Virus record (IMG/VR): IMGVR_UViG_3300025674_000053
Location: 1 to 54,717 of that record
Source of the DNA: a virus
Lineage: Duplodnaviria; Caudoviricetes
Length of the DNA stretch: 54,717 nucleotides
Strand: one strand, 5' to 3'
The notes under the pieces are model-generated. The model had not been told where the DNA came from. It ran no database searches and was given only the letters and a program-made list of their open reading frames with translations. A program made the position numbers and the translations under genes. Positions 24,435 through 54,584 of this stretch are shown piece by piece; the first letter of the stretch is position 1; every line of letters starts with the position of its first letter.

Positions 24435-25274
24435 ATGATAGCAGAAGACTTATTAAGAGAGAAGAAAATACAGTATACCCTAAGTGGTAGGGATGCTCTT
24501 ATACATTGTCTAAACCCTGAACATGATGATAACTCTCCTTCAATGAGAGTAGATAAAGTTACAGGAATATTTCACTGTTTCTCATGCGGTTACAAGGGTA
24601 ATCTGTTTACATATTTTGGTGCACCTGCTTCTCCACTAGAAGTTCGTATGCACAGAATTAAAGAATCAATCAACAAAGTCAGGTCAGCAACTGTCGGTAT
24701 CCAACTCCCAAAGGATAGACTATCGTGGAAAGGTGGTGGAATCAGAAATATATCTGAAGAAACTCTTGCTAAATGGGATGCGTTCACATGGAACGTTCCT
24801 AAGTTTGAGAATCGCATCATCTTTCCGATACGAGATATCACAGGCAAGACGGTGGCTTTAATAGGTAGAAGTCTGGACGACTTCAGTAATCAAAAGTATT
24901 ATATCTACCCACAAGGTGTAGAGATGCCTTTTTGTCCAGCAAAAGTAAAACCTATACAAAACAGAGTTATATTGGTAGAGGGCATCTTTGATGCTCTTAA
25001 CCTTTGGGACAAAGGTCTCAAGAATACTGTGTGTACATTTGGCACACAACAAGTCAATTGGGTCAAACTAAGTCTACTGAAACTCCAAGGTATCACAGGA
25101 GTTGACATTATGTTTGACGGAGATGATGCAGGAATACAAGCGGCTGAGAAAGCCAAAGACCTTGCTGACAAGTTAGAAATGTCCGCAAGAGTAGTAAAAT
25201 TACGAGATAATATAGACCCTGGCAATCTAACAACGCCAGAGATAGAAAGATTAAAGGAAAAATTATATGGCTAA
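24435..25274 (+). CDS. DNA primase
   Basis: CHC2 zinc finger (CLNPEH...HCFSC) and TOPRIM (VEGIFD, FDGDDAG). Confidence 0.93.
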   Translation: MIAEDLLREKKIQYTLSGRDALIHCLNPEHDDNSPSMRVDKVTGIFHCFSCGYKGNLFTYFGAPASPLEVRMHRIKESINKVRSATVGIQLPKDRLSWKGGGIRNISEETLAKWDAFTWNVPKFENRIIFPIRDITGKTVALIGRSLDDFSNQKYYIYPQGVEMPFCPAKVKPIQNRVILVEGIFDALNLWDKGLKNTVCTFGTQQVNWVKLSLLKLQGITGVDIMFDGDDAGIQAAEKAKDLADKLEMSARVVKLRDNIDPGNLTTPEIERLKEKLYG

Positions 25275-27525
25275 TGTAGCACTAATAGAAACAACAATGT
25301 CCAGCACGAACTGGGATAAATACTTTGACTTTGAATATGATAGGTTTGCCCTATGTTCAGATAGTTCAAAGAAGAAAATTTTGAAAAGAGATGTTGATAT
25401 CGAAATCGATATCGATGCGTACGAATGGCTCATTGTTGTAGGTTCAGAGCCTTTCAAAATGTATACTAGAAAAACATCTATAACTGAGTACAATGGAAAA
25501 GTTTGCGATGATAAATTTTTAGCAATAATCAATCCTGCTATGATAAAGTTCAGACCAGAAGCAAAGAAGACATTCGAGGAAGCGGTCGAGAGTATAACGG
25601 GATATGTGAGTGGAAAACTCAAACAAATGACCATACCAAAAGACAGATGTTATGGCATACAAGACACAGACGAATTAAATGCGTGGTTACAGAAAGCATT
25701 AGACCACGAAGGCGACTTCATAGCGCTTGACTCCGAGACATCAGCATTGTACTGCCGTGATGGCTACATGCTAGGTTTCTCGATGTCCTATGAATTTGAG
25801 CATGGTATCTATGCCGATTGTGAGTGCATGGATGAAGAATCTGAGAGACTCATGCAAGAGATATTCAATAAGAAACGAGTTGTATTTCATAACGCTAAGT
25901 TTGATTTACAATGGTTTGAGTATCACTTCAACTTTGAGTTTCCTCATTTTGAAGATACTATGCTTATGCATTATATGTTTGACGAGAGACCAGGAACACA
26001 TGGTCTTAAGACACTAGCAATCAAGCATACTCCATATGGAGATTACGAAGCAGAACTTTCTAACTGGATTGCTGACTTCAAGAAAAGAACAGGTATACTC
26101 AAAGATTCTTTTGATTATAGTATGGTTCCATTTGAAGTTATGCGAAACTACGCAGCAATGGATGCTATCGTAACGTTTATGTTATTTGAGAAGTTTGAGA
26201 AAGCTCTCAAAACAAATGATAAACTCTATGGAGTATACAGAAGAATCCTAATAGAAGGATGTAGATTTCTAAAATGTATCGAGAGCAATGGCGTTCCCTT
26301 CGACAAAGTTCGTTTAGAATTTGGTCAGAAGCGTATGGGCGAAGATATTGATGCAGCAGTAAAAGCTCTATATGAGTTTCCTGAAGTCAAACAGTTTATC
26401 GCAGACAAGGGTGCATTTAACCCTAACTCAACTCTGCAACTAAGAGCTTTACTCTTTGACTATATCGGACTGAAGTCTGACAAGAAAACCGCAACGGGTG
26501 CACTCAGTACAGATGCTGAAGTACTTGGTAATCTTGCAGAAGAACATGATGTGCCTAAACACATTCTAGAAGTTCGTCAAAAGGTTAAAATCAAGACTAC
26601 ATATCTTGATAAAATTATTCCTAACCTAGACATGGATGGAAGACTTAGAACAAACTTCAATCTACATGGCACAACCAGTGGTAGATTGAGTAGTAGTGGT
26701 AAACTTAATATGCAACAGCTCCCTAGAGATAATCCCACAGTAAAAGGCTGTATCAAAGCCAAAGCAGGACACAAGATTGTGGCAATGGACTTGACAACAG
26801 CAGAAGTATACTGTGCGGCTGTACTAGCAGATGATAAAGGTTTGATGGAAGTATTTAGAAGCGGTGGTAACTTTCATAGTACGATTGCTAAACAAGTATT
26901 CAGATTACCTTGCGATGTTGATGATGTCGCAGAAATGTACGGTGCACAAAGACAACAAGCTAAAGCTGTTACCTTTGGTATCATGTATGGAGCTGGGCCG
27001 AAGAAGATAAGTGAACAAGTAACAAAGGATAGTGGAGAATACTTCAGTATGCAAGATGCAGCAAATACTATTAAAGATTATTTTGAGGCGTTCCCTAAAC
27101 TTCGTGAGTGGCTAGACAACCAAAAGAAATTTATTCAAGCGAATGGATTTGTTTATAGTAGGTTTGGCAGAAAGAGAAGATTACCTGATGTCCATTCACA
27201 GGACAAAGGAATCGCTTCTCATGAAGTGCGTAGTGGAATTAACTTCTTAGTACAATCTGTAGCATCTGATATCAACCTTATGGGCGGTATCGATATGCAG
27301 AGGTATATAGAAAAGACAGGAATGAAATCTAAGATATTTGCACTTGTTCACGATTCGGTTTTAGCAGAAGTGCCTGAAGATGAGATAGAACACTACTCAG
27401 AAAAATTACAAGAGTTTATACAAAAAGATAGAGGACTATCAATACCTGGAGCTCCAGTTGGGTGTGACTTTGATGTTGCTGATGATTATTCACTAGGCAA
27501 GTTTGAAAAGTTATATGCAAGTTAA
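25267..27525 (+). CDS. Family A DNA polymerase with 3'-5' exonuclease
   Basis: DSET, HNAKFD, YAAMD exonuclease motifs; TTSGRLSS, RQQAKAVTFGIMYG (motif B), VHDS (motif C). Confidence 0.96.
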   Translation: MANVALIETTMSSTNWDKYFDFEYDRFALCSDSSKKKILKRDVDIEIDIDAYEWLIVVGSEPFKMYTRKTSITEYNGKVCDDKFLAIINPAMIKFRPEAKKTFEEAVESITGYVSGKLKQMTIPKDRCYGIQDTDELNAWLQKALDHEGDFIALDSETSALYCRDGYMLGFSMSYEFEHGIYADCECMDEESERLMQEIFNKKRVVFHNAKFDLQWFEYHFNFEFPHFEDTMLMHYMFDERPGTHGLKTLAIKHTPYGDYEAELSNWIADFKKRTGILKDSFDYSMVPFEVMRNYAAMDAIVTFMLFEKFEKALKTNDKLYGVYRRILIEGCRFLKCIESNGVPFDKVRLEFGQKRMGEDIDAAVKALYEFPEVKQFIADKGAFNPNSTLQLRALLFDYIGLKSDKKTATGALSTDAEVLGNLAEEHDVPKHILEVRQKVKIKTTYLDKIIPNLDMDGRLRTNFNLHGTTSGRLSSSGKLNMQQLPRDNPTVKGCIKAKAGHKIVAMDLTTAEVYCAAVLADDKGLMEVFRSGGNFHSTIAKQVFRLPCDVDDVAEMYGAQRQQAKAVTFGIMYGAGPKKISEQVTKDSGEYFSMQDAANTIKDYFEAFPKLREWLDNQKKFIQANGFVYSRFGRKRRLPDVHSQDKGIASHEVRSGINFLVQSVASDINLMGGIDMQRYIEKTGMKSKIFALVHDSVLAEVPEDEIEHYSEKLQEFIQKDRGLSIPGAPVGCDFDVADDYSLGKFEKLYAS

Positions 27526-41553: not shown

Positions 41554-42844
41554 ATTTTATATACTCACTACTGCAGCAGGTAGGTATTTAGACTGGTATG
41601 ACAGAAGTGCCTCTACAGACACTAGTTTTAAAAGTTTACAAATACATTTTGACCCGCGATGGTCAAATATACCTTACAAAGATGCAGTAGTAGTTATAAA
41701 TACGCCTGACTCGGGGTATGAACAAGCAGTAAGTAAGTGGTGTTCTGAAAGAAACATAGAACACCATATTACTGAATGTAATGGAACTCCAGGTAAAGGA
41801 AAAAATGAACTGCTAAAAATATTCTTGAAGTCTAATGACGACTACATGGTACAAATTGACGGAGATGATATGTTAACCCCTTACGGGGTTGATTTGTATA
41901 AAGGGTTTGCAAAAGAAGGTGCGCCCGATAGTATAATTATATATCATCAGTGGTCTCAGTTTATAGATAAATATGGACAAAGACACTTCACAAGAATCAT
42001 GAATAATCAAGATAGACCTGCAAATTTTGAGAAAGATAAAGAATTTCTGGGTCAGTACATGCCATTAGCTTATAAGTATCAGAAATGGTATAGAAAAAAA
42101 GTTGATGAACTAGGTGGACTAGAGGCTGTTATAAATAAATTTGCTCAGTATACAAATGATATGCATGAGATGTGTAGAAAGTATAATGAAACATACTTCT
42201 CTCATGTGACTAATCAGATGATGGTAGATAATCACTGTAGACCTGTATGGTATTCAAGAAAAGCAGCAGAGTACAGATTTGATGAAACTATGCGAATAGG
42301 AGAAGATACTAGATTCTATTTACATTTAAAGACAGCGCACTATAAAGGATTACTAAATGTTAAAAGATTAAAAGAAGTTCCTTGTAGTTATGTATATAAT
42401 AATTTGTATGGCGGAATAGTAGCAGACGAATCAAATGGCATGACTAATATGCTTTGGATGGAAAAGTATATGAAGTATGTAGAACAAGATGTAAAAGAAG
42501 GGAAAATAGGTAAATACCCAAATTTACCCGAATTACAAGTGTCTATACCAGACCAAGTAAACGATTATTATATCACACAAGAGTTTAATATAGATGATTT
42601 AGACCCTAATAGTGAAGCATATAAGAACATAAAACTGTGCGATGAAACTAGAATTGCACTAAAAAACAAAATAAAAAGGATTCAAGAAGATACTTACTTT
42701 TCATCTAAAAAGCTGATTACTAGTATAAAACCTGGAGGAGCACACTGGGCATACTTCTCTAATCCTTTCTTTAAAAATATTTATTCCGTCTGTCCTATGG
42801 GAGAGAAAATGGAACATTACTTTCAAAAAAGGATAATACTATGA
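41531..42844 (+). CDS. Putative GT2-like glycosyltransferase
   Basis: VVVIN, ECNGTPGKGKN, YMVQIDGDD, IGED motifs. Confidence 0.6.
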   Translation: MSVKKTVRFYILTTAAGRYLDWYDRSASTDTSFKSLQIHFDPRWSNIPYKDAVVVINTPDSGYEQAVSKWCSERNIEHHITECNGTPGKGKNELLKIFLKSNDDYMVQIDGDDMLTPYGVDLYKGFAKEGAPDSIIIYHQWSQFIDKYGQRHFTRIMNNQDRPANFEKDKEFLGQYMPLAYKYQKWYRKKVDELGGLEAVINKFAQYTNDMHEMCRKYNETYFSHVTNQMMVDNHCRPVWYSRKAAEYRFDETMRIGEDTRFYLHLKTAHYKGLLNVKRLKEVPCSYVYNNLYGGIVADESNGMTNMLWMEKYMKYVEQDVKEGKIGKYPNLPELQVSIPDQVNDYYITQEFNIDDLDPNSEAYKNIKLCDETRIALKNKIKRIQEDTYFSSKKLITSIKPGGAHWAYFSNPFFKNIYSVCPMGEKMEHYFQKRIIL

Positions 42845-43470
42845 AAATTTTTATTGGGTACGAATCTGAATACCCAGAAATGTTTGACGTATGTGCAAAA
42901 AGCATAACTCGTTACAATTCCAATCATGAAATCATACCACTCAAAAAATCGGAAATATCCGAATATACTCGTCCATTTCAGAACGAGAGTACGGAATTTG
43001 CCTTTACTCGTTTTCTAGTACCACAGCTCTGTGACTACGAAGGACAAGCTTTATTCTGTGATGGAGATTTCTTATGGCTTTGTGACCCTGAAGAAGTTAT
43101 GGATTATTTTTCCGATGAACATACAGTTCATGTGGTAAAACATCCTAGTTTCCTCGTTAAGACTAAGAAAATGATAAACAAGAAAAATCATGGTTATCCT
43201 AGAAAATACTGGTCAAGTCTCATGCTTTTTAATAATCCTAAGTGTACAGAACTTACTTATGATTATGTAAACCAAGCCCCAGCGGGTGCATTGCATGAGT
43301 TGCGGTGGGCGGACAGCATAGGAGAACTTCCCGCGCAGTACAATGCCATGGTAAATTACTACAAATTTAAAAGACCAAAAGCCCTACACTACACAGACGG
43401 CGGGCCTTGGTTAAATATAAACGAAGACTCGGAGCTTACAGCATTATGGATGAAACTTTACAGAAGTTAA
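42841..43470 (+). CDS. GT8-like glycosyltransferase
   Basis: KIFIGY, STEFAFTRFLVP, FCDGDF, YPRKYWSSLMLFN, HYTDGGPW. Confidence 0.82.
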   Translation: MKIFIGYESEYPEMFDVCAKSITRYNSNHEIIPLKKSEISEYTRPFQNESTEFAFTRFLVPQLCDYEGQALFCDGDFLWLCDPEEVMDYFSDEHTVHVVKHPSFLVKTKKMINKKNHGYPRKYWSSLMLFNNPKCTELTYDYVNQAPAGALHELRWADSIGELPAQYNAMVNYYKFKRPKALHYTDGGPWLNINEDSELTALWMKLYRS

Positions 43471-44108
43471 CAGAAAACAAAAATTTAATACTTGTGGGAA
43501 ACTCTGTCGAAATCATGCAATATGATTTTGGACAATACATAGATAGTTTTGACACAGTTGTGCGATTTGGGAAAGGTGTACCTGACATTACAAATAGTGA
43601 ACATGTGGGAACTCGTACAGATATTTGGATTACTGGATGGTTAAGAATGAACTTCTATCCTGCGTTTGAAAAAGCATACCCCTTGTTTAATCGTTGCCGT
43701 ATAAATCTCGACAAATACCCAGACCATAGAGGAGCACCGCCTTGGGGTCACGATAATGATATGTTCTCAGATGAAGAATTAAAAGTTATATTTGAAGATG
43801 TTGGTGCAGTTAATAATAAATGGGGGAAGGGCAAACGTCCAAGTGCAGGTTATCTCGGTATATTATTTTTCTTACAGAAGTGTAATTATAAAAGTTTGAC
43901 ACTAATTGGATTTGATTTCTTTTCTAAAAAGTTACCAATAAAGACAGGCGAAGATTACCCTTCAAGTTGGCACATGCCTATAAATGCTTCGGGTACAAAT
44001 CCTCATAATCCTAATGAAAAAGAGATAGTTTCTAAATGGAGAGATGAAGGTAAGTTAAATTGGAAAGTTCTTTCCGACCTAAAAGAGGAGATGTTAAAGT
44101 TTTCCTAA
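43446..44108 (+). CDS. GT29 sialyltransferase-like protein
   Basis: LILVGNS...GQYIDSFDTVVRF...VGTRTD (sialylmotif L-like), PSAG...LIGFDF (S-like), H....E (VS-like). Confidence 0.7.
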   Translation: MDETLQKLTENKNLILVGNSVEIMQYDFGQYIDSFDTVVRFGKGVPDITNSEHVGTRTDIWITGWLRMNFYPAFEKAYPLFNRCRINLDKYPDHRGAPPWGHDNDMFSDEELKVIFEDVGAVNNKWGKGKRPSAGYLGILFFLQKCNYKSLTLIGFDFFSKKLPIKTGEDYPSSWHMPINASGTNPHNPNEKEIVSKWRDEGKLNWKVLSDLKEEMLKFS

Positions 44109-45014
44109 TCTATATCCTACTTGTATAAGTTTACTCGCAGTACCTTTTTGTCTATTTGATTTGTATGATATGTTTTCACATACTCTTGCATTTCTATAGT
44201 TTACAGGTATCTTTGGTATAAGGTCTGCATATAGTTCCCATGGAGTAGATAGTTGAGTTCCTGTAGTACACTTAGCATATCCAAGTTCTAGTGCCTTTGT
44301 AGGCATAGCAATACTCCAAGATTTTCTAAGCATTACATTATAATTCAAGTATTCTCTTGAAGGCAAAGCATCCCATTGAATAAGCAAATCACTCTTACCA
44401 TTCATATATCTAGGTAATACTCCGTGTGGTCTATTGTGTAATTTTGAAAAGAAGAACTGGTTTGTTGCTGCAAGTACTCTACTGTCGTAGTTCTGATAAA
44501 AGCCTTGTGCATAGAATAAATCAGTATCTCTTGCATCTTTTAGTAAGTCGTAGTTTATCATAAAAAACTCTGTGTCCCAGTTTGCAGGCATGTCTCCTTT
44601 AGCAAAATCTAGTATACCGTAGTAGTTTTCAAAATGAGGGTGTCCTATAAAAGTTTTCTTTCTTGACAAGTGTGCCATTTTATTTTGGAAAAAGTCTTCG
44701 CTTGGTATTTCATTCTTCCAATTATCTTTTAGGAATATTCTATTTCCACCTGCATACATAATTCTTTTATGCAACCCTTTATCTTTCCAGAATAGTCTAA
44801 GATGTTGTATTGCTCTTGCAGCAAAATCTTTCTTCCAATAGCTTTCGTAGATTCTTACATTGGGTATATTTTCAAATATCCAGCTTACTGGCAAATCGGC
44901 ATAGTCATCCTCATGCACATATAAGTGCAGACGAAAATCCTCATCTTTGTCAATCAGCGAAGCTATAGTGAAGTAACTCCAGTCTGGCTTCCATGTATGT
45001 ACTATCTCAATCAT
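44094..45014 (-). CDS. Hypothetical protein, possibly degenerate GT-A glycosyltransferase
   Basis: TIASL, FFMINYD and LPRYMN resemble the GT8 layout, but no DxD is present. Confidence 0.4.
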   Translation of the reverse strand: MIEIVHTWKPDWSYFTIASLIDKDEDFRLHLYVHEDDYADLPVSWIFENIPNVRIYESYWKKDFAARAIQHLRLFWKDKGLHKRIMYAGGNRIFLKDNWKNEIPSEDFFQNKMAHLSRKKTFIGHPHFENYYGILDFAKGDMPANWDTEFFMINYDLLKDARDTDLFYAQGFYQNYDSRVLAATNQFFFSKLHNRPHGVLPRYMNGKSDLLIQWDALPSREYLNYNVMLRKSWSIAMPTKALELGYAKCTTGTQLSTPWELYADLIPKIPVNYRNARVCENISYKSNRQKGTASKLIQVGYRLGKL

Positions 45015-45891
45015 TTGTTTTCTTAAACTCCCAAAAATTATTTATATAATTATTCATTCGTGCTTGTGCATCTTCATCAAAGGCAAATATAATACCTGAA
45101 TTAGTTGCTGAAAATATTTTTTCTATACCGCCTCTTGCTTGTGCACAGGCATAGTAAATACTTTCGTATGTTAGTAAACTTTTTTCTCTTTCTTCTTTTG
45201 TATAACTTATCATTCTTAAATGCTTCTTAAGTAATAATGCAATGAGTCCCATTTCACTATTTGGCATTGTAGCAACATGAGAACATTTCATTAATAGTTC
45301 CATACCACCTGATTTTTTATCTAAAACTTTGTCTTTGCCAAACTTTCTTTTTAGTCTAGCAACATATAAATCAGTAGTAATTGGATGTGGTTTTATTACA
45401 TAACCTTCATCTATACATTGTTTTATTCTACCCCAATGAACACAATTTGGTTTAGTAAGTAAGTTTGTTCCTGGAGGAAATACTACTTTATCGTATTCTT
45501 CATCAGTATGTTTTAAATGATATTTATTTCTAAGATTATTTTTGACTTTTTGTATTCGTTCTTCGTCAATTTTTATGTCAGAATTAACAATACTTAACAT
45601 CAATTTATCATTTATTTTTACACTAGGAACCCTTAAGTATATACCTGCTCCTAGAAAATCTGTGTATAACCACTTTCTAATAGTATGTAATTCATTAGTA
45701 TTGAACCACACATCATATTCAAAAGTTAGTCCAAACCTTTGGTCTGGGATAAGTTCCTTTTTCATTTGACCCAGTTCATTTAAATCTTCTTTAGGTCTTG
45801 TACAAGAACCTGATTTAAATATATGAGTTGTTTGGTCACCTAATTCTTCTACAGAAGCAAAAGGTACTAATTTATTAGTCCTTACTACCAT
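45007..45891 (-). CDS. Capsule polysaccharide KpsS/KpsC-like (GT-B) protein
   Basis: VIKPHP motif followed by ELL....V.T..SEMGLIALL..K. Confidence 0.6.
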   Translation of the reverse strand: MVVRTNKLVPFASVEELGDQTTHIFKSGSCTRPKEDLNELGQMKKELIPDQRFGLTFEYDVWFNTNELHTIRKWLYTDFLGAGIYLRVPSVKINDKLMLSIVNSDIKIDEERIQKVKNNLRNKYHLKHTDEEYDKVVFPPGTNLLTKPNCVHWGRIKQCIDEGYVIKPHPITTDLYVARLKRKFGKDKVLDKKSGGMELLMKCSHVATMPNSEMGLIALLLKKHLRMISYTKEEREKSLLTYESIYYACAQARGGIEKIFSATNSGIIFAFDEDAQARMNNYINNFWEFKKTND

Positions 45892-46051
45892 TCTCTAGCC
45901 TTTTAATTGTATGTTTTAAATCTACTATATGTAACTCTTGTTCTTTCAGTCTTTCTTCAAACTGATGGATTGAGTCAAATAAAGCACTGGCTAAGCTTTC
46001 TAGCTTGTCACTCACATATTTAGGAGTGATATCTTTTTCTTCTAATTTCAT
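45875..46051 (-). CDS. Small coiled-coil protein
   Basis: GGAG SD before ATG 46051; heptad pattern. Confidence 0.6.
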   Translation of the reverse strand: MKLEEKDITPKYVSDKLESLASALFDSIHQFEERLKEQELHIVDLKHTIKRLENGSKD

Positions 46052-46071
46052 TGTTTCTCCGTTGGTAATTA

Positions 46072-49000
46072 TTAATCTTCCGACCACTGGCTACCATCCC
46101 AGAAGGACGCATTAAATGCTTCTGCGCTAGAAACTTCTGTGTCGAAGATTGTTCCAGCTGCTGATGCGGTAATTCTTTCAAATACTTGTGTACCTGTCTC
46201 AAACGTTGTAGTTGTAGTAGGAGTTGTCGTCCTAGTTGTATCTGTATCTCTAGTTGTTTGAATTGTTGTAGTTGTACTTTGACCTGTTGCATAGGTTGTA
46301 GTTCTAGTTGTATTGAATGTTGTAGTTGTATTAAATACTGTTGTTCTACTTGTTTCAGTCGCTCTACTAGTATTGAATGTACTTGTCGTGTCTCTACTAG
46401 ACCCTGTGCTTCTACTTGTAAGAGAGGCTCTTGAAGTTTCATATGTAGATACTGTGTCTTGACTTGTGACAGTTCCTCTACTTGTAAGAGAATCTCTTGA
46501 GGTTGCAAAGGTAGATACTGTATCTTTGCTTGTAACAGTTCCTCTAGTTGTTTCTGATAGTCTAGAAGTGTTGTATGTAGATACTGTATCTTTTGAAGTA
46601 AGTGTTGATTTACTTGTCCCTGTAGTAGTATTTGTATCAAACGTTGTAGTTGTACTTTTACTTGTGCCTGTTGACCTAGTTGTAAGAGTTCCTTGAGAAG
46701 TAGCATATACTGTCGTGGTGTCTCTACTTGTAAGAGTTGCATTACTTGTATCTGTTGATTGTGTTGTATTAAATACTGTTGTAGTATCTTTACTTGTTCC
46801 TGTAGTTCTAGTTGTATCTGATACTCTTGAAGTATTAAATGTAGTACTTGTACTTTTGTCTGTTCCTGTAGTTCTAGTTGTATCTGACAGTCTAGAAGTA
46901 TTAAATGTTGTTGTTGTATCTCTATCTGTAACTGTTCCTCTAGCTGTGTTAAATACTGTTGTAGTATCTCTACTTGTTCCTGTGCTTCTAGAAGATAGTC
47001 TTGAAGTTTGATATGTTGTCTCAAATTCTGTAGTTCTACTTGTATTTGTTGTCTGAGTAGTATTATAACTTGTTGACTGCGCAGTATTACTTGTTCTACT
47101 CGTATTTGTTGTAAATGATGTATTGTACGAGGTAGACTGTGCCGTACTACTCGTTCTACTCGTATTCGTTGTAAATGATGTATTATACGAAGTAGATTGT
47201 GCAGTACTACTTGTTCTACTTGTATTTGTTGTAAATGATGTATTATACGAAGTAGATTGTGACGTACCAGTTGTTTTACTTGTATTTGTTGTAAACGACG
47301 TGTTGTACGAAGTAGATTGTGCAGTACTACTTGTTCTACTTGTGTTAGTAGATTGTGTAGTAGTGTAACTTGTTGATTGTGCAGTATTACTTGTTCTACT
47401 TGTATTAGTAGATTGTGTAGTAGTATAACTTGTTGACTGCGAAGTATTACTTGTTCTACTTGTATTTGTTACCTGAGTAGTAGTATAACTTGTGGAAATA
47501 ATAGTATCTGTAGTTGCTGAAGTATTTGTAGTCCTTGTTGTAGCAAAGGACGTATTGTTAGTAAATACTGTTGTTCTACTTGTGTTTGTGCTTCTTGCAG
47601 TTGTAAATGATGTATTATCAGTATATTGTGTAAGTCTACTTGTATTTGTACTTCTTGTGGTAGCAAAGGATGTGTTATCAGTAAATACTGTTGTTCTACT
47701 TGTTGCAGTATTTCTTGTTGTAGCTTGTGATGTATTATCACTATATTCTGTAAGTCTACTTGTCGCAGTATTTCTTGTTGTAGCTTGTGATGTATTATCA
47801 GTATATTCAGTTGTTCTACTTGTTGCAGTATTTCTAGTTGTAGCTTGCGATGTATTATCAGTGTATTGTGTAAGTCTACTTGTGTTAGTAGAGTTTGTAA
47901 AGCCTGTACTTCTTGTTGTAGCAAAGGACGTATTGTTAGAAGTATTTGTATTTCTACTTGTCGCAGTGTTTCTTGTTGTACCTGCTAAGTCTTCAGTTAC
48001 TCTAGTCGTATTATTTGTAAATGCAGTATTTACAGATGTGTTTGTTCCGAAAGACGTAGCGTTTGTGAATGATGTATTACTAGCATACTCTGTAGTTCTT
48101 GCTGTATTATTTGTAAATCCTGTACTTCTACTTGTGTTTGTTCCAAAGGATGTAGAGTTTGTAAATCCTGTGTTATCGGTATATTCAGTTGTTCTTGCTG
48201 TGTTATTTGTAAATCCTGTACTTACACTTGTGTTTGTACCGAAGGATGTAGAGTTTGTAAACCCTGTACTTGCTGTATATTCAGTTGTTCTCGCTGTGTT
48301 TGTAGCGAATGAAGTAGCATTTGTAAACTCTGTAGTTCTCGCTGTGTTAGTTGCGAATGAAGTAGAATTTGTAAACGCTGTATTTCTTGCTGTGTTGGTA
48401 GCTTGAGAAGTGTTGTAATTAGTACCTGTAATACCTGCAGTAATAGTATCCGTAAATAATGTAGCTTGAACGTAGCCCTGACTATAAGAGAAGTATGTAT
48501 ACGTAAACGAAGTAGTAGTAACATGCGATGTATTTGTAGCCCTACTAGTTCCAAAACTGGTATTATTTGTAAATCCTGTACTTCTTGCTGTGTTTGTATT
48601 TCTTGTAGTATTATTTGTAAATCCTGTACTTCTTGCTGTGTTTGTATTTCTTGTAGTATTATTTGTAAAGCCTGTACTGTTTGATGTATTTGTATTTCTA
48701 GCAGTATTTGTGTTTCTAGTTGTATTTGCTGCAAATTCTGTAGTTCTTGCTGTGTTAGTTGCGAATGAAGTACTTCTTGATGTATTTGTACCTCTTGCTG
48801 TATTTGTATTTCTAGTCGTGTTAGCTGTATATTCAGTTGTTCTTGCTGTGTTTGTAGCAAATGAAGTAGAATTTGACGTGTTTGTACTTCTACTTGTTGC
48901 AGTATTTCTAGATGTATTTGCCGTAAACTCTGAAACTCTCGATGTATTCGTAGCAAAGGCCGTAGCGAAAGATGTATTTGTACCAAACGAAGTAGAGTTT

Positions 49001-50937
49001 GTAAATGATGTACTTCCTGTGTATTCTGTTAGTCTTGCTGTATCATACGAAGTATTTCTCGCTGTATTTGTATTGACAGCAGCAAGTGCTGTATTTCTAG
49101 AAGTGTTTGTAGCAAAAGCAGTATTGTACGAAGTACTATTCGTGAAGCCTGTACTTCTTGATGTATTCGTAGCAAACGCTGTATTGTAGGATGTACTGTT
49201 TGTAAAGCCTGTACTTCTTGATGTATTCGTAGCAAAAGCAGTATTATATGATGTAGAGTTTGTAAAGCCTGTACTTCTACTTGTGTTTGTAGACTGTGTA
49301 GTAGTATACGAAGTATTTACTGCATCTAACGCTGTATTTCTAGATGTATTGGTAGACTGAGTAGTAGTATAGTTTGTATTTACTGCATCTAACGCTGTAT
49401 TTCTAGAGGTGCTTGTAGATTGTGTAGTATTGTATGAGGTACTAGCCTCAAAAGCAGTGGTTGTATCATGTGCAGTATTTCTTGTTGTAGCAAATGATGT
49501 ATTGTCTTCGTAAGCAGTTGTTGTACTAAACGTTGTAGTTCTAGTTGTGCCAAATGATGTATTATCTGAATAAGCAGTTGTTGTACTAAACGTTGTAGTT
49601 CTAGTAGTAGCAAATGATGTATTATCTGAATAAGCAGTTGTTGTATCAAATGTTGTTGTTCTAGTGGTTGACTGAGATGTACTGTCCTCATATGCAGTAG
49701 TTGTATCAAATGTTGTTGTTCTAGTCGTAGATTGAGAGGTACTGTCTTCATATGCTGTAGTCGTATCAAATGTTGTTGTTCTAGTCGTAGATTGAGATGT
49801 ACTATCTTCATATGCTGTAGTCGTATCATATGTAGTTGTTCTTGTAGTTGATTGTGACGTACTGTCCTCATATGCTGTAGTAGTCTCAAATGTTGTAGTT
49901 CTAGTCGTAGCAAACGAAGTACTATTTGTAAATTCTGTAAGTCTATTAGTTAAAATAGTCGTATCAAAGAAAGTTGTAAATGTAGTTGTAGTTTCGTACG
50001 CTGTTGTAGTTGTGAGCGTAGTATTAAACGTTGTAGTTGTTGTAAAATCTGTTGTAGTTTCAAGCGTTGTGTTAAACGTTGTTGTTGTAGTAAACGTTGT
50101 TGTTGTATTAAATGCAGTAGTCGTATTTCTGCTAGTTTCAAATACTGTTGTAGTCTCAAATGTTGTAGTTGTATTAAATGCGGTAGTTGTAGTTTTACTA
50201 GTATTAAATGTTGTAGTTGTAGTAAACGTTGTAGTTGTGTTAAACGCAGTTGTTGTAGTAGTATTTGTATCAAACGTTGTAGTTGTAGTAAACGTTGTAG
50301 TTGTGTTAAACGCAGTTGTTGTACCTTGCGTAGTTGCATAAGTTGTTGTAGTATTAAATGCAGTTGTAGTACTAAACTCTGTTGTTGTTGTTATTGTTGT
50401 GTTAAACGTTGTTGTTGTATTAAATGCAGTTGTAGTTGTAAAATCAGTTGTTGTAGTTGTAGTTGTATCAAATGTAGTTGTTGTATTAAACTGCGTTGTT
50501 GTTGTAAAATCTGTAACCGTAGTAATGGTTGTATTGAAAGTTGTTGTAGTGTTAAATGCAGTGGTGGTAGTAAATGCAGTTGTAGTATTGATTGTAGTTG
50601 CAAATACTGTTGTAGTTTCAAAAGTAGTAGTTCTGTTTGTTTCAGTACTTCTTGATGTATTAAATTCTGTAGTTCTACTAGTATCGAAACCTGTTGTTGT
50701 ATTGTAGTCAGTATCAAAAGCTGTAGTAGTATTAAAGGTAGTTACAATATCAGTGGTATTTGTTGTTCTCGCTGTGTCAGTATTTCTAGTTGTTTCATGC
50801 ACAGCAGAAAACGGCCCCGCAAGGTTGCCGTTATCGTTTACATATACTTCATTGACCCTTCGTATTGTGCCGCCATCGTTGACTGCAAGGAAGGATATCT
50901 GACGTAATGTACCACTGTCATTAACATATATTGCCAT
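46072..50937 (-). CDS. Giant Thr/Ser/Asn-rich repetitive fibre-like protein (1621 aa)
   Basis: Uninterrupted ORF. N-terminus IYVNDSG..R...VYVND and C-terminus FWDGSQW resemble phage fibre-associated motifs. Located among late genes. Confidence 0.8.
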   Translation of the reverse strand: MAIYVNDSGTLRQISFLAVNDGGTIRRVNEVYVNDNGNLAGPFSAVHETTRNTDTARTTNTTDIVTTFNTTTAFDTDYNTTTGFDTSRTTEFNTSRSTETNRTTTFETTTVFATTINTTTAFTTTTAFNTTTTFNTTITTVTDFTTTTQFNTTTTFDTTTTTTTDFTTTTAFNTTTTFNTTITTTTEFSTTTAFNTTTTYATTQGTTTAFNTTTTFTTTTTFDTNTTTTTAFNTTTTFTTTTTFNTSKTTTTAFNTTTTFETTTVFETSRNTTTAFNTTTTFTTTTTFNTTLETTTDFTTTTTFNTTLTTTTAYETTTTFTTFFDTTILTNRLTEFTNSTSFATTRTTTFETTTAYEDSTSQSTTRTTTYDTTTAYEDSTSQSTTRTTTFDTTTAYEDSTSQSTTRTTTFDTTTAYEDSTSQSTTRTTTFDTTTAYSDNTSFATTRTTTFSTTTAYSDNTSFGTTRTTTFSTTTAYEDNTSFATTRNTAHDTTTAFEASTSYNTTQSTSTSRNTALDAVNTNYTTTQSTNTSRNTALDAVNTSYTTTQSTNTSRSTGFTNSTSYNTAFATNTSRSTGFTNSTSYNTAFATNTSRSTGFTNSTSYNTAFATNTSRNTALAAVNTNTARNTSYDTARLTEYTGSTSFTNSTSFGTNTSFATAFATNTSRVSEFTANTSRNTATSRSTNTSNSTSFATNTARTTEYTANTTRNTNTARGTNTSRSTSFATNTARTTEFAANTTRNTNTARNTNTSNSTGFTNNTTRNTNTARSTGFTNNTTRNTNTARSTGFTNNTSFGTSRATNTSHVTTTSFTYTYFSYSQGYVQATLFTDTITAGITGTNYNTSQATNTARNTAFTNSTSFATNTARTTEFTNATSFATNTARTTEYTASTGFTNSTSFGTNTSVSTGFTNNTARTTEYTDNTGFTNSTSFGTNTSRSTGFTNNTARTTEYASNTSFTNATSFGTNTSVNTAFTNNTTRVTEDLAGTTRNTATSRNTNTSNNTSFATTRSTGFTNSTNTSRLTQYTDNTSQATTRNTATSRTTEYTDNTSQATTRNTATSRLTEYSDNTSQATTRNTATSRTTVFTDNTSFATTRSTNTSRLTQYTDNTSFTTARSTNTSRTTVFTNNTSFATTRTTNTSATTDTIISTSYTTTQVTNTSRTSNTSQSTSYTTTQSTNTSRTSNTAQSTSYTTTQSTNTSRTSSTAQSTSYNTSFTTNTSKTTGTSQSTSYNTSFTTNTSRTSSTAQSTSYNTSFTTNTSRTSSTAQSTSYNTSFTTNTSRTSNTAQSTSYNTTQTTNTSRTTEFETTYQTSRLSSRSTGTSRDTTTVFNTARGTVTDRDTTTTFNTSRLSDTTRTTGTDKSTSTTFNTSRVSDTTRTTGTSKDTTTVFNTTQSTDTSNATLTSRDTTTVYATSQGTLTTRSTGTSKSTTTTFDTNTTTGTSKSTLTSKDTVSTYNTSRLSETTRGTVTSKDTVSTFATSRDSLTSRGTVTSQDTVSTYETSRASLTSRSTGSSRDTTSTFNTSRATETSRTTVFNTTTTFNTTRTTTYATGQSTTTTIQTTRDTDTTRTTTPTTTTTFETGTQVFERITASAAGTIFDTEVSSAEAFNASFWDGSQWSED
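47035..47890 (-). repeat. 60-nt (20-aa) coding tandem repeats, C-terminal arm (8 + 6 units)
   Basis: Units STSY[NT]T[ST][FQ]xTNTSRTSxTAQ and TSRxTxYTDNTS[QF]ATTRxTx are visible as vertical alignment in the 60-column lines. Confidence 0.9.
49090..49920 (-). repeat. 60-nt (20-aa) coding tandem repeats, N-terminal arm (8 + 6 units)
   Basis: Units S[FQ]xTTRTTTFDTTTAYEDxT and TSYxTx[QF]xTNTSRxTxxxxx. Confidence 0.9.
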
Positions 50938-50940
50938 CTC

Positions 50941-51162
50941 TTAACTCGAATATACAAACCATACATGACCGTCACTCGTGCCGGAAGTATTTGTTGGTGC
51001 GGTTGTTGTAATTGTAAAAGGTAGTCTAGCTTTTGCGATAGTACCTGAGCCTACCTTACTAGCTGCGACAGACCCTTCGAAGTTTCTACTTGCGTCAATT
51101 ACGTCAGCACCATCAATTTTGATACCAGCGTCCTCGATATTAAAATCTAATTTTTGTCCCAT
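50941..51162 (-). CDS. Small tail-fibre-associated protein
   Basis: GAGGT SD; C-terminal TTAP....DGHVWFVY motif typical of fibre proteins. Confidence 0.6.
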   Translation of the reverse strand: MGQKLDFNIEDAGIKIDGADVIDASRNFEGSVAASKVGSGTIAKARLPFTITTTAPTNTSGTSDGHVWFVYSS

Positions 51163-51163
51163 G

Positions 51164-54100
51164 TTATACCTCTATTGTTGTCCTTATAAACTTGAACGCC
51201 ATAGTATCTGTACTTGCTGGCGTTGCTCTTAATCTTACATTTCCTGAATTTATATCCGCATCAAATGTTGCCTGCGCTCCATTTTCAAAAATAGATGCGT
51301 ACTGTGTTAAGTATACATCAGTTCCGTCATGGAATAATAAAATTTCAATTGCTTGAAAATCTGTGTCTGTTGAATTATGTACCTGTACTAAATACTTAGC
51401 AGTTCTAAATGTAGCTACTGCAAAACTATCTAATGTAAACTGTGCTGTTGCAGATGAACTTCCTGAGCCTACACTCATACCAGCTACTTCATCTAAGTGA
51501 AGCATTTGTGGTGGATTACTATCTCTTACACCTAGTGTTTGTATATTTGTAATATCTCCTGTACCATTACCTAGATTTAAATCTCCAGTAAAGTTAATAT
51601 TACCTGACATTGTTTTACCACCAAGTGCTGCACTTGATAGTTGTGTAGTAGTTACAGAATTATTTGCAATCTCACTTGACCCAACAGCGTTTGCTGCTAT
51701 CTTTGCTGCTGTAACTGCATTAGCTGCTATTGAGCCTGTTGCTACTTGTGCACCACCAATTTTTGCTGTTGTAACTGCATCATCTGCTAAATGTATAGTA
51801 TCAATACTACCACTTATTAATTCTGCACTATCAACTGAGTTAGATGCTAAATCGCCTGCTGCAATAGTACCGTCAGCTATTTGTGTAGTTGTAATAGAAC
51901 CGTCTGGTATTTTTGCTGCTGTTATAGCGTTATCTGCAATTTCTGCTGTTCCTACAACACCGTTTTGGATTATGCCAGCTGTGACCGAGTTAAGTGCTAT
52001 TTCGCTTGTTCCGACAGCATTACCAGCTATCTTTGCACTTGTTACTGAATTATCTCCAATATGTATAGTATCAATTGAACCTGTTACGAGTTCTGCTGAA
52101 TCTACTGAGTTTGCAGCTAGTTCTGTTGCTGATATAGAACCTGCAACTATTTTTGATTGTGTTACTGAGTTATTAGCTAAATCTGCTGTTACAATAGAGC
52201 CATTTACTATTTTTGATGAGTCTACTGAATTAGCCGCTAGTTTACCTAGTGTTACTTGTGCGTCTGCAATATGTATTGTATCAATACTGCCTGAAACTAT
52301 CTCACCACTATCTACTGAATTTGCTGCTAAGTGACCTCCATTTATAAGGCCATTTGCTATTTGTCCAGCAGAATCTATAGCATTATCTGCTATTTTTGAA
52401 CTTACTATTTGGTCAGACCCAATATGTCTTGTTAAAATTCCACCTGATATAATTTTTGTTGCATTTACATTGTTATCTGCAATATTTGCTGTTAAGATTG
52501 TATTGGCTGCTATCTCAGCTGTTGTAATACTTCCTGCTACAATCTTACTTGCATTTACAGTATTGTTTGCTATTGCACTTGCTGTACCTGTTAAGTTACC
52601 TGTAACATTTCCTTCTACGTTTGCTACAAGTGTTCCGACTGCATATCCTGTACCTTCTGTATTTACTGTTGTGGTTGGCGCAGTCTGTAAATCTTTAAAT
52701 ATTTTCCACTTACCTGAGTCTCCAGCATCTCTGAAGAAACCTGAGTATTTGTCTGTTCCTGATTGGTCGTATAGTCCATAGAAACCAATGTCAACTGAAT
52801 CTGCTGAATCATTTGTTGTTGCTAATGCAAGTAGTGGGTCTGCTACATTAATTGTTGTAGAAGATACTGTAGTTGTTGTTCCTGATACAGTTAAGTTTCC
52901 AGATAATACTACATTACCTGAGAAAGTCTGTCCACCAAGTGCTGTACTTGCTAGTTCGCTTGTTCCTATACTGTTTGCGGCTATTTCTGAACTACCTACT
53001 GCATTTGCTTGAATTTTTGCTGATGTAACTGAGTTACCTGCTAGTTGATTAGTATTAATTAAACCGTCTTGAATAAATGCAACACTGTTGATTGCATTAT
53101 CTGCTATTTTGTTTGCTGTTACAGAATCAGTCGCTAGTTCACTTGAACCTACTTGTCCTGCTCCGATTTTTCCTGCAGTAACAGAGTTAGCAGCTAAATG
53201 TATAGCATCTATACTACCTGTAACAAGTTCTGCTGAGTCTACTGAGTTTGCAGCTATTTGTAAAGCGCCTACAGCATCAGTTGCTATGTGTGATGAATCT
53301 ATAGCATTGGCAACGATTCTATTACCATTGATTGCATTGTGTGCAATATTTCCTGCAACAATTGTGGAATCTGCTATTTTAGCACTTGTAACTGCGTCGT
53401 CTGCTAAATGTATAGTGTCTATGCCGCCCGATACAAGTTCTGCTGAATCTACTGAGTTTGCTGCTAATAAATCTGCTGTTACAGTACCACTTGGAATATG
53501 TATTGCTCCAATAGAGTTTTGTGCTATTTCTGAAGCACCTATTGTATTTTCCGCTATTTTTGCACTAGTGATTGCATTATCAGCCAGGTCGGCCGTAGCT
53601 ATAGTGCCGTTGACTATCTTAGCTGAAGTGACAGAATTATCTCCGAGTTTGGCAGTTGTGACAGCTCCCGCGGCGATTTTTGCAGTAGTAACCTGTAAAG
53701 CTCCTATGTGTATCGTATCGATAGAGCCAGTAATTAATTCTGCGCTGTCAACACTGTTTGCTCCAAGTTGAGTGCTAGTGATACTCCCATCAGCAATATG
53801 ATGAGCAGTAACGTTGTTTCCAGCAATCTTCGCTGTTGTAACCGCGTTTGCCGAAATGTGAATTGTGTCGATACTACCAGTAGCAATTTCGCTTGAATCG
53901 ATTGAATTTTCTGCTATTTCATTCGAGGTTATTGCATTTGCAGCTATCTTGGCTGTGGTAACTTGACCAGTTCCAATGTGGATTGTGTCAATACTTCCTG
54001 TTACTAATTCTGAACTGTCTACTGAGTTTGCAGCTAAGCCTGCGGCTGTTACCGAGTTATCTGCTACTGCAGTTACAGCTGTTGCTTGTAATTCAGCTGC

Positions 54101-54250
54101 TCCAACAGAGTTTGTTGCTAATTCTGCAGCTGTTACAGAATTTAAAGCTAATTCAGAAGCTGTAATAGCATTGGCCGCAATCTTACTTGCAACTACACTA
54201 TTGTTACCTATTGAATCTTGTTGTACTAAAAACTTACCTATTAACGGCAT
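51164..54250 (-). CDS. Long tail fibre-like protein with 10-aa repeats
   Basis: Many (A/G)xN(S/A)(V/I)TxAK(I/L) decamers, central GNLTVSGTTTTV...DIGFYG domain, C-terminal FRTAKYLVQV domain. ATG at 54250. Confidence 0.75.
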   Translation of the reverse strand: MPLIGKFLVQQDSIGNNSVVASKIAANAITASELALNSVTAAELATNSVGAAELQATAVTAVADNSVTAAGLAANSVDSSELVTGSIDTIHIGTGQVTTAKIAANAITSNEIAENSIDSSEIATGSIDTIHISANAVTTAKIAGNNVTAHHIADGSITSTQLGANSVDSAELITGSIDTIHIGALQVTTAKIAAGAVTTAKLGDNSVTSAKIVNGTIATADLADNAITSAKIAENTIGASEIAQNSIGAIHIPSGTVTADLLAANSVDSAELVSGGIDTIHLADDAVTSAKIADSTIVAGNIAHNAINGNRIVANAIDSSHIATDAVGALQIAANSVDSAELVTGSIDAIHLAANSVTAGKIGAGQVGSSELATDSVTANKIADNAINSVAFIQDGLINTNQLAGNSVTSAKIQANAVGSSEIAANSIGTSELASTALGGQTFSGNVVLSGNLTVSGTTTTVSSTTINVADPLLALATTNDSADSVDIGFYGLYDQSGTDKYSGFFRDAGDSGKWKIFKDLQTAPTTTVNTEGTGYAVGTLVANVEGNVTGNLTGTASAIANNTVNASKIVAGSITTAEIAANTILTANIADNNVNATKIISGGILTRHIGSDQIVSSKIADNAIDSAGQIANGLINGGHLAANSVDSGEIVSGSIDTIHIADAQVTLGKLAANSVDSSKIVNGSIVTADLANNSVTQSKIVAGSISATELAANSVDSAELVTGSIDTIHIGDNSVTSAKIAGNAVGTSEIALNSVTAGIIQNGVVGTAEIADNAITAAKIPDGSITTTQIADGTIAAGDLASNSVDSAELISGSIDTIHLADDAVTTAKIGGAQVATGSIAANAVTAAKIAANAVGSSEIANNSVTTTQLSSAALGGKTMSGNINFTGDLNLGNGTGDITNIQTLGVRDSNPPQMLHLDEVAGMSVGSGSSSATAQFTLDSFAVATFRTAKYLVQVHNSTDTDFQAIEILLFHDGTDVYLTQYASIFENGAQATFDADINSGNVRLRATPASTDTMAFKFIRTTIEV

Positions 54251-54251
54251 C

Positions 54252-54584
54252 TTATGTTTGCTCCAAATACGATAGAACGACATCTACCGAACTTGCCGTG
54301 TTTGACGAAACTTTTATAATATCCCCTGCTTCTAAAACGACTTTTGCGTCGCCTCCTATTGGTGCAAGTGTTGAACCTGCTGGTATCTCTACTCCGTTCA
54401 CAATTGAGGCATGATGGTCTGAACTAGCATTATAAAACTGACAAGTAACAGTAATATCTGCTCCTGCAGTATTACATAAATATAATCCGATTATTGTTGT
54501 AGTTGTACTTGATGGACAAGTGTATACAGAGGTTAAACTTGTACCTACGTCAACTCCTGTCGCTGTTTTAAATGCTGATGCCAT
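54252..54584 (-). CDS. Small virion structural protein
   Basis: VYTCP....TIIGL.LCN...KVVLEAGD.I.V pattern common in aquatic phage tail modules. Confidence 0.6.
   Translation of the reverse strand: MASAFKTATGVDVGTSLTSVYTCPSSTTTTIIGLYLCNTAGADITVTCQFYNASSDHHASIVNGVEIPAGSTLAPIGGDAKVVLEAGDIIKVSSNTASSVDVVLSYLEQT

Follow-up and report, generated by a model that had tools for sequence, protein, structure and literature searches.

The stretch of DNA analysed here (the window) is the complete IMG/VR virus record IMGVR_UViG_3300025674_000053 (Duplodnaviria; Caudoviricetes), 54,717 bases with an estimated completeness of ~52%, and its subject is a giant gene on the minus strand, the open reading frame (ORF) 46072..50937 (−), which encodes a repeat-rich protein of 1,621 amino acids and ends with a stop codon at 46072–46074. 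The two arms of this protein are complementary when one is read against the reverse of the other, aromatic residues of one arm facing Arg, Gln or Lys of the other, and the same relation is found in all 43 unique homologs. We propose that each chain probably folds back into a two-stranded antiparallel β ribbon with its conserved termini together at the base.

The protein consists of 39.0% Thr, 12.7% Ser, 9.6% Asn, 6.7% Phe and 5.8% Arg, so that Ser and Thr together make up 52%, and it holds only two Pro (0.1%) and three His. All of its segments are given here in the order of the chain and lie on the minus strand. An N-terminal domain with three VND-G-T-[LI]-R-like motifs (residues 1–45, 50803..50937), the proposed base of the fibre, is followed by outgoing aromatic-rich repeats of 5, 6 and 22 residues (residues ~51–340, 49918..50787; 66-nt and 18-nt arrays). 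Outgoing block A (residues 341–500, 49438..49917) comprises eight 20-mers, whose variable residue reads F QQQQ FFF, and outgoing block B (residues 501–622, 49072..49437) six 20/21-mers reading QQQ FFF; two units of block B are 21-mers, and these and a third single-residue insertion (residue 621) each shift the register by one. Outgoing 16/32-residue repeats (residues 623–810, 48508..49071; 48/96-nt arrays), which form aromatic:R pairs with the return 16/32-mers, lead to the non-repeat aromatic centre FTYTYFSYSQGYVQATLF (residues 811–828, 48454..48507). The return arm begins with its own 16/32-residue repeats (residues 829–1020, 47878..48453), identified by 48/96-nt arrays and the mirror alignment, and continues with block A′ (residues 1021–1140, 47518..47877; six 20-mers of A-type geometry reading QQQ FFF, opposing block B), block B′ (residues 1141–1300, 47038..47517; eight 20-mers reading QQQ FFFF Q, opposing block A) and basic 22-residue repeats (residues ~1301–1575, 46213..47037; 66-nt arrays), which oppose the aromatic N-terminal zone. 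The conserved C-terminal domain (..FERITASAAGTIFDTEV..FWDGSQW..; residues 1576–1621, 46075..46212) is proposed to lie beside the N-terminal domain at the base.

Tandem Repeats Finder placed 66-nt arrays near both ends of the gene (46388–46929 and 50066–50587), 48/96-nt arrays on either side of the centre at ~48480 (48011–48402 and 48560–48918) and 60-nt arrays at 47033–47493 (7.7 copies), 47534–47884 (5.8 copies) and 49454–49923 (7.8 copies), with 49089–49429 divided into a 60-nt array (49089–49278) and a 63-nt array (49269–49429). These coordinates match the positions given to the repeats in a first-pass annotation, which had been made from the letters alone. Within an A-type unit, R, F and Y lie at +4, +8 and +14 from the variable residue at 0 (Y also at −6), and within a B-type unit R, Q and Y lie at +6, +12 and +16 (Y also at −4). 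The repeat periods of the protein are all even (16, 20, 22 and 32), the 21-mers of the window's clade appearing as single-residue bulges. Between 46020 and 50717, many ORFs of 80–334 amino acids, Leu/Gln- or Val-rich, overlap the giant gene in other frames on both strands; they are by-products of its low-complexity repeats and not separate genes.

Complementarity is most easily seen in the 20-mers. The variable residue runs F, QQQQ, FFF, QQQ, FFF along the outgoing arm and QQQ, FFF, QQQ, FFFF, Q along the return arm, and every one of the 14 outgoing units lies opposite a return unit of contrary state (F or non-F). The position sums of facing variable residues are 1637–1639, which puts the axis at S819/Q820 of the motif YSQGY. 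The first-pass annotation had described this opposition and had placed the axis in YSQGY, and on both points it was correct. It had also described the 20-mer blocks as mirrored; their unit numbers do match (8/6/6/8), but the facing blocks differ in type, an A-type array always lying opposite a B-type array. Because the mirror sets the two types against each other, R faces Y on both sides, and the R/Y cross-pairing that the annotation had claimed is visible in the mirror alignment. Each of the four special positions in a 20-mer (0, +4, +8 and +14) lies opposite its mirror position. Read in the same chain direction, block A (eight units) resembles A′ (six) and block B (six) resembles B′ (eight).

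The pairing extends well beyond these blocks. In a gapped fold-back alignment, for which the pair matrix was trained on 15 other homologs, it begins at the tip, takes in the zones of 16/32-mers and 22-mers and continues almost to both termini, as far as about residues 60 and 1575, and the F residues of the outgoing aromatic zone (~51–340) face R, K or Q of the basic C-terminal 22-mers. The only gaps within the repeat arms are three of a single residue (at residues 517, 538 and 621, in block B) and one of five residues. An aromatic residue stands opposite R, Q or K in 123 of the 149 aromatic-containing columns, and in none opposite another aromatic. The partners of aromatic residues are R in 85 of 140 cases, Q in 28, K in 8 and Thr in 3. 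The F–Q rule first put forward for the 20-mers is therefore right in that Q is among the partners, but too narrow, as R is the commonest partner, K takes part as well and the pairing reaches past the 20-mers.

Counts made without gaps give the same picture. On the exact antidiagonal S = 1637 (S being the position sum i + j) there are 76 aromatic:R/Q/K pairs, compared with a mean of 7.6 (sd 6.7) over all antidiagonals (z 10.2). Shuffling the return arm in blocks of 20 amino acids gave at most 41 pairs in 100 trials, reversing it gave 39, and the top antidiagonal of a repetitive neighbour protein of 1039 amino acids, used as a control for mirror signal, held only seven. Alignment of the protein against its own reverse, a check that the first-pass annotation had proposed, gave a gapped score of 509.6 in the mirror orientation and 4.2 in the direct orientation; shuffling by blocks (20 trials) gave −86 ± 22 and shuffling by residues (10 trials) −368 ± 15. 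Two further measures were dropped: a sliding-window period track, which was too noisy, and a log-odds matrix summed over whole antidiagonals, which fails where the 21-mers shift the register. A palindrome or mirror repeat in the DNA was considered as a source and rejected, there being no inverted repeats in the gene (0 found); by reasoning, a DNA-level origin is also rejected, as the reverse complements of Phe, Gln and Thr codons do not yield the observed partners.

A scan of viral contigs yielded 79 loci, with 60 full-length ORFs and 43 unique proteins of 792–1,621 amino acids, all on uncultured viral contigs. In 43 of the 43, the top exact antidiagonal for aromatic:R/Q/K counts falls at i + j = L + 1 + 14 to 16, where L is the length of the protein (z 8.4–14.7). 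On that one antidiagonal, aromatic residues face R, Q or K in 130 of 151 cases in homolog L017, 124 of 143 in L034 and 63 of 76 in L051, and in several clades almost all aromatic residues follow the rule there. Compared with shifted registers, the pairs F:R (360 vs 52), F:Q (230 vs 18) and Y:R (224 vs 16) are enriched, and T:R (2 vs 248) and F:T (13 vs 229) are depleted. When the 30 representatives of distinct length are pooled, 1722 aromatic:polar and 923 polar:aromatic columns (2,645 in all) stand beside one aromatic:aromatic column, where 264 are expected, and four polar:polar columns, where 230 are expected, assuming independence within one face. Both orientations of the pair are used, so that the rule concerns pairs and does not come from a difference in composition between the arms. 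The remaining cross-strand pairs are T:T, N:N and A:S. In the clade of L053, L054 and L056, the 237 aromatic residues are partnered by R (120), V (42), I (31), L (14) and K (13), with Ser once and Thr never; here Val, Ile and Leu largely take the place of Gln, and the tip contains Cys (..ASFCDEQG.., ..YFCEEQ..). The general rule is that an aromatic residue lies opposite a medium or long side chain, rarely opposite Thr or Ser and almost never opposite another aromatic.

Rotating the outgoing F/Q string of the window by two units yields its return string, and for this reason its 14 of 14 is weak evidence on its own, compatible with direct duplication. The homologs turn the complementarity of the F/Q patterns into strong evidence. 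With A-block units in capitals and B-block units in lower case, the outgoing strings are FQQQQFFF–qqqfff in the window protein (14/14 units complementary), FFFF–qqqqqqffff in L007 (11/11), FFFF–qqqqqff in L001 (11/11), FQFF–qqqqqf in L002 (9/9), FQFFFF–qqqff in L008 (9/9) and FFQF–qff in L010 (6/6), and L003 is complementary in 9/9, with A-type units opposite B-type units in all seven proteins; a unit enters these counts whenever it faces another recognised unit. The anticorrelation of F and Q, whose loss in homologs would have spoken against the first-pass annotation, is thus retained in all seven proteins while the patterns themselves vary. Unit numbers counted by eye are A = 4, B = 10, A′ = 10 and B′ = 4 in L007 and 4, 8, 8 and 4 in L002, so that A equals B′ and B equals A′ while A differs from A′, and a reading by direct duplication therefore fails.

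The lengths of the two arms follow each other closely. Among the 30 representatives of distinct length, the outgoing arm measures 404–816.5 residues and the return arm 387–803.5 (r = 0.995), the outgoing arm being longer by 10–20 residues in 23. Pairs of sequences that are 89–93% identical provide examples of mirror indels: L032 and L048 differ by 10 amino acids at 376–385 and at 629–638, roughly mirror positions, and L062 and L066 by 8 amino acids at 275–282 and 711–718 and by 4 at 469–472 and 525–528. The pairing rule, its register and its conservation are direct observations, as is the co-variation of arm lengths and F/Q patterns; we take them to reflect physical β pairing, probably within one chain.

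Side chains alternate between two faces along the whole length of the arms. The special residues of L017 occupy 137 of 359 even columns and 8 of 360 odd columns, and those of L041 84 of 226 columns of one parity and 0 of 226 of the other. In L017, face 1 is composed of T (55%), F (13%), R (12%), Y (6%) and Q (5%), and face 2 of T (26%), S (23%), N (18%) and A (15%). This two-residue alternation is never broken over more than 700 residues (~720 pairs), and the arms contain 2.8% Gly and 0.1% Pro. By general β-sheet geometry, an uninterrupted alternation with almost no Gly or Pro points to one continuous β strand per arm, and neither to a solenoid with turns nor to a helix. When the register is slipped by 16, 20, 22, 32 or 44 residues, half or more of the good pairs are lost and aromatic:aromatic and aromatic:small mismatches appear; in L017, the native register has 139 good pairs, one aromatic:aromatic and nine aromatic:small pairs, and no slipped register has more than 70 good pairs. 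A unique register may therefore be fixed by the aperiodic runs of F and Q together with the mixing of repeat types.

At the axis the sequence changes character. Residues 812–823 are unpaired in the fold-back alignment, as a tip loop, and the centre of the window protein is the 14-mer poorest in Thr, Ser and Asn of the whole protein interior, three residues from S/2. In a search for such segments that was blind to the pair rule, the least Thr/Ser/Asn-rich interior 14-mer lay no more than 10 residues from S/2, on either side, in 33 of 43 homologs (chance ~0.02 each) and no more than 25 in 39 of 43. Compared with the arms, the central 16-mer is enriched in Glu (12.3 vs 1.0%), Tyr (14.2 vs 2.5%), Gly (7.1 vs 2.8%) and Pro (1.2 vs 0.1%), and also in Asp, and 26 of 30 tips contain Gly or Pro. 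The tip loop measures ~5–14 residues and its sequence varies by clade (FTYTYFSYSQGY, LEEDSEGEEY, FDPENGT, EEESGTF). An aromatic tip, which had been proposed from the window, is indeed present there (residues 811–828) but is restricted to the window's clade, most other homologs having acidic tips. The N- and C-terminal domains are common to all 60 full-length ORFs, and the invariant columns of a 33-sequence alignment (A2) concentrate in the N-terminal domain (M1 N6 D7 G9 L11 R12 F16 ... F43). Conserved termini and a variable middle are the opposite of the usual fibre layout and are what a fold-back predicts.

Taken together, these features suggest that the gene product would be a fibrous structural protein of a distantly T5-like uncultured phage. 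Residues ~46–811 would run outward as one long β strand, the chain would reverse at a 12-residue aromatic loop (812–823), and residues 824 to ~1575 would return antiparallel, pairing residue by residue with the outgoing strand (i + j = 1637–1640). The two conserved terminal domains would thereby meet at one end, where attachment is presumed. One face of the ribbon would carry Thr and aromatic residues (F/Y) paired with R, Q and K (V/I/L in one clade), and the other the small residues T, S, N and A. Such a virion fibre could be up to ~250 nm long (~750 pairs × 0.33 nm), and it may consist of several bundled chains, like other phage fibres. The first-pass annotation had read the protein as a fold-back of this kind, a reading that gains support from the antidiagonal found in every homolog, the co-varying arms, the F/Q opposition and the period of two.

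Several observations weigh against this reading. AlphaFold2 gave no confident model for residues 700–940 with a 12-sequence alignment (A1; mean predicted local distance difference test (pLDDT) 28.9, predicted template modelling score (pTM) 0.18), nor for the full 792-residue L051 with alignment A2 (pLDDT 32.5). The prediction of residues 700–940 as a monomer, suggested in the first-pass annotation, thus did produce a model, yet one of very low confidence. In both models a hairpin appears where the tip is predicted (103–120/123–135 in the fragment and 391–401/405–414 in L051), which at such confidence is no evidence. The matrix used to optimise the gapped alignments rewards the rule, and the counts from them are biased in its favour; counting on exact antidiagonals is free of this bias. 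A strict one-to-one test for mirror indels paired only 139 of 421 indels (127 of 403 between sequences of 80–90% identity, 12 of 15 at 90–98% and 0 of 3 at 98% or above), although many of the unpaired indels look like single indels split by the aligner. In six of the 43 proteins (L039, L040, L067, L005, L003 and L054) a whole unit has changed in one arm only, the unpaired units being 20 amino acids in L039 and L040 (outgoing arm), 40 + 14 + 5 in L003 and 16 in L054. The expectation that homologs gain or lose repeats in both arms together therefore holds for the lengths as a whole and for the mirror indels, but not for these six or in the strict test. The copy numbers of the window's arrays rest on one short-read assembly, a place of the protein in the virion is a prediction, and the sequence alone fits pairing within a chain and between chains alike.

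Five of the six one-arm variants differ from a near-identical sister by such units only, and L054 has no sister in the set; L034, L039 and L067 are 100% identical except for one 20-mer, and the pairs L006/L005 and L008/L003 are 99.9% identical. They represent either fresh slippage events, that is, bulged intermediates in the evolution of arm length, or collapses of repeats in short-read assembly. The 20-residue units at residues 624–643 and 798–817 of L034 are the ones absent from the outgoing arm of L067 and from the return arm of L039, and four records contain identical assemblies of the L034 form. As for the window, independent Logan contigs from four public runs cover every part of the gene with at least 99% agreement, and none spans a whole array. 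At position 50671 the contigs of all four runs read G and the window A, with no other differences or indels reported, and a few joints of low depth (3.9–9.6) occur in the run contigs along the gene. Contigs of run X4, a metatranscriptome, cover the whole gene (region 45800–51200) with at least 99% agreement; presence in an RNA library does not in itself show transcription.

The alternative closest to the fold-back is antiparallel pairing between chains, in which full-length chains would lie head to tail, with termini at both ends and a fibre twice as long. Every count of constant i + j fits this arrangement equally well, and no structure separates it from the hairpin. However, an antiparallel dimer needs no special segment at its axis, where Glu, Asp, Gly and Pro or aromatic residues are concentrated, and attachment domains at both ends would leave no obvious mounting on the virion. 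The turn-like, variable middle and the conserved ends thus appear to favour fold-back within the chain over head-to-tail chains, and we regard the latter as unlikely. It is rather less likely still that the arms fold locally, as a β solenoid or serpentine with one 16-, 20- or 22-residue unit per rung, and lie antiparallel side by side with complementarity from unit to unit. Repeats of 16–22 residues and Thr-rich two-faced strands do recall antifreeze and ice-nucleation proteins, and the unit counts of facing blocks match, but the four special positions of the 20-mer all face mirror positions instead of lying on one edge, the alternation continues without turns for more than 700 residues in arms of 2.8% Gly and 0.1% Pro, and the two arms match in length almost to the residue (a few residues apart) and not just in unit number. 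At a rise of 0.48 nm per 20-residue rung, a solenoid would be only ~20 nm long, compared with ~250 nm for ~750 pairs.

Two further explanations dispense with pairing between the arms. A disordered, mucin-like and heavily O-glycosylated Ser/Thr-rich coat or hair would suit the 52% Ser and Thr, the conserved synteny with putative glycosyltransferase genes (see below) and the low AlphaFold2 confidence everywhere; disorder, however, gives no reason for a residue-exact mirror code, a period of two or equal arms, and two Pro in 1621 residues are unlike mucins, so that we find it very improbable. A glycosylated, folded ribbon is possible and compatible with the fold-back reading. That there is no physical pairing at all, the mirror being a by-product of direct duplication (A–B to A′–B′), shared periodicity or chance, seems to us the least probable of the explanations. 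In its favour are the likeness of A to A′ and of B to B′ in the same direction and the rotated return string of the window, but the direct alignment score is 4.2 against 509.6 for the mirror, A and A′ differ in unit number (4 vs 10 in L007, 4 vs 8 in L002) where A matches B′ and B matches A′, the rule is present in 43 of 43 homologs with one aromatic:aromatic column against ~264 expected, and block shuffles reach at most 41 pairs against 76.

Database searches gave no relative in the family libraries, solved structures, cultured phages or prokaryote genomes searched. The whole protein had no match in Pfam, PHROGs or NCBIfam, and phmmer returned 0 sequences from the PDB at E ≤ 0.01; the N- and C-terminal domains had no PDB match at 0.001, the best hit (E 0.0049) being the unrelated protein SAKe6BC. 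In tblastn against 50,697 phage records, the whole protein, its N-terminal 50 and its C-terminal 46 amino acids were all without match, as was window 30000–54717 in a megablast against the same records. A homologous-protein search with residues 1–60, restricted to proteins of 891–2837 amino acids, gave no match, the genomes of 185,579 bacterial and archaeal species contained no relative, and the giant protein had no match to its own record at E ≤ 0.001. The literature, at the level of titles and abstract openings, gave no description of such a protein or fibre design, and PMC12143355 and PMC6851490 offered nothing of relevance. The 79 viral-contig loci indicate a widespread family, probably encoding a very long appendage of distantly T5-like phages of aquatic metagenomes.

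Among known systems, the needle of T4 gp37 is the nearest precedent for a fold-back β fibre whose distal tip lies mid-sequence. Each needle chain reportedly runs out and back, a finding attributed to Bartual et al. 2010, and the core of the needle holds His-coordinated iron. The needle is formed by the last ~215 residues of gp37, is ~15 nm long and has neither tandem repeats nor a simple cross-strand code, whereas the window protein would be a hairpin over its entire length (~750 pairs), built of repeats and held by such a code. The out-and-back course of the gp37 chain is matched here at the level of sequence co-variation only (constant i + j in 43 of 43 and a turn-like axis segment), and with three His in 1621 residues a metal core like that of gp37 is not expected. 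The two proteins are unrelated in sequence, as the PDB and Pfam searches above indicate. Excerpts of the literature on gp37 give the dimensions of the needle as ~150 by 25 Å (PMC3004832) and describe it as six-stranded and antiparallel, with three chains (PMC9659904).

In the antigen I/II adhesins of streptococci the chain likewise folds back, with the termini at the base and the middle at the tip. An excerpt of PMC4048849 describes a fibrillar stalk, more than 50 nm long, in which A and P repeats are wound around each other, with the N- and C-terminal domains as its base and mid-sequence at the tip. That stalk is made of an α helix and a polyproline II helix and bears a globular V domain, unlike the β-pointing composition and the small loop tip described here; helix/polyproline pairing of this type finds no counterpart in a protein with two Pro, 39% Thr and a period-2 pattern, and the adhesins differ also in organism and function. 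The adenovirus triple β-spiral and the triple β-helices of T4 gp5C and gp12 are, like the proposed fibre, long, thin, repeat-built and β-rich fibres of virions, and the giant gene adjoins a tail-fibre-like gene. Their repeats contact sequence neighbours and other chains and the C terminus is distal, whereas in the window family the implied contacts are from residue i to L + 16 − i and both termini would be proximal. For gp5C, an excerpt of PMC3004832 describes a triple-stranded β helix. In solenoids of the antifreeze and ice-nucleation type the coils are local and contain turns, whereas here the alternation is unbroken and the complementarity is of the mirror type. Those Thr-rich β-solenoid proteins have two-faced strands and repeats of ~12–19 residues. 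The window protein differs from them in its ~720 pairs of unbroken alternation and in the dominance of constant i + j, and it has no Pfam match. As an analogy only, an RNA stem-loop is also an antiparallel self-pairing chain with a pairing rule, compensatory changes and paired indels; here the chain is a protein, the code sets aromatic against medium or long side chains, and the pairing is deduced.

The gene order around the giant gene was common to all eight loci inspected (L013, L019, L029, L034, L041, L044, L046 and L071): it is preceded by a tail-fibre-like gene of ~1000 amino acids and a gene of 110 amino acids and followed by two genes of ~300 amino acids and then by two convergent genes. 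In the window, the upstream neighbour (51164..54283 (−), 1039 amino acids) matches phrog_892 'tail fiber protein' at E 3.1e-104 and has tblastn matches to annotated tail fibre and minor tail proteins, and the giant gene is encoded in a tail/fibre gene module. This neighbour is itself highly repetitive (..SVDSAELVTGSIDTIHI.. units) and without mirror signal; its repeats seem to have been duplicated directly within the protein, alongside a Gly-rich segment. The two downstream genes (44094..45891 (−), 294 and 306 amino acids), conserved in synteny and with a match to phrog_26179, had no Pfam or NCBIfam match, and Atlas feature matches link them to KpsS/LipB-like (0.94) and GT14 'Branch' (0.92) clusters; they are possible glycosyltransferases, as a lead only. 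The two convergent genes (42841..44108 (+)) comprise one GT29-like and one weakly GT8-like gene by Pfam (Glyco_transf_29 at 30.3 bits, cut-off 23; Glyco_transf_8 at 19 bits, under the cut-off of 24.3). We hypothesize from this conserved four-gene block (42841–45891) that the Ser/Thr-rich fibre may be glycosylated.

The DNA polymerase of the window, a family A enzyme, is 43% identical to those of T5-like phages (~110 kb). Besides this polymerase, the replication module (25267–27525 (+), 14782–41338) encodes a DnaB-like helicase, an NAD-dependent ligase, SbcCD-like nucleases, both ribonucleotide reductase subunits and a Nol-like carbamoyltransferase, a content which suggests that the window may derive from a distantly T5-like phage genome of ~105 kb.

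We lean, by a little, towards the fuller picture of a protein 'stem-loop', in which a chain of 800–1600 residues would zip into one β ribbon of 110–250 nm, held in a unique register by its pairing code with F/Q states and 16/20/22-residue units as a barcode, evolving in the manner of an RNA stem and possibly carrying a coat of O-glycans made by the adjoining glycosyltransferase-like genes. The architecture may be categorically new or, more cautiously, a variant of the phage fibre, with gp37 and antigen I/II, both unrelated in sequence, as its nearest counterparts. If the fold-back reading is true, the fibre would follow a principle unlike that of the phage and cellular fibres compared here, its whole shaft being one intramolecular β hairpin, its distal tip lying mid-sequence and its length being set by equal numbers of residues in two unlike arms. 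The family would then offer an unusually large natural data set on cross-strand pair preferences, its 43 sequences containing thousands of pairs. It would be an example of compensatory evolution that acts on substitutions as well as indels, and might explain how a repetitive zipper avoids mis-registration; it would also provide a natural template for designed long β ribbons of set length.

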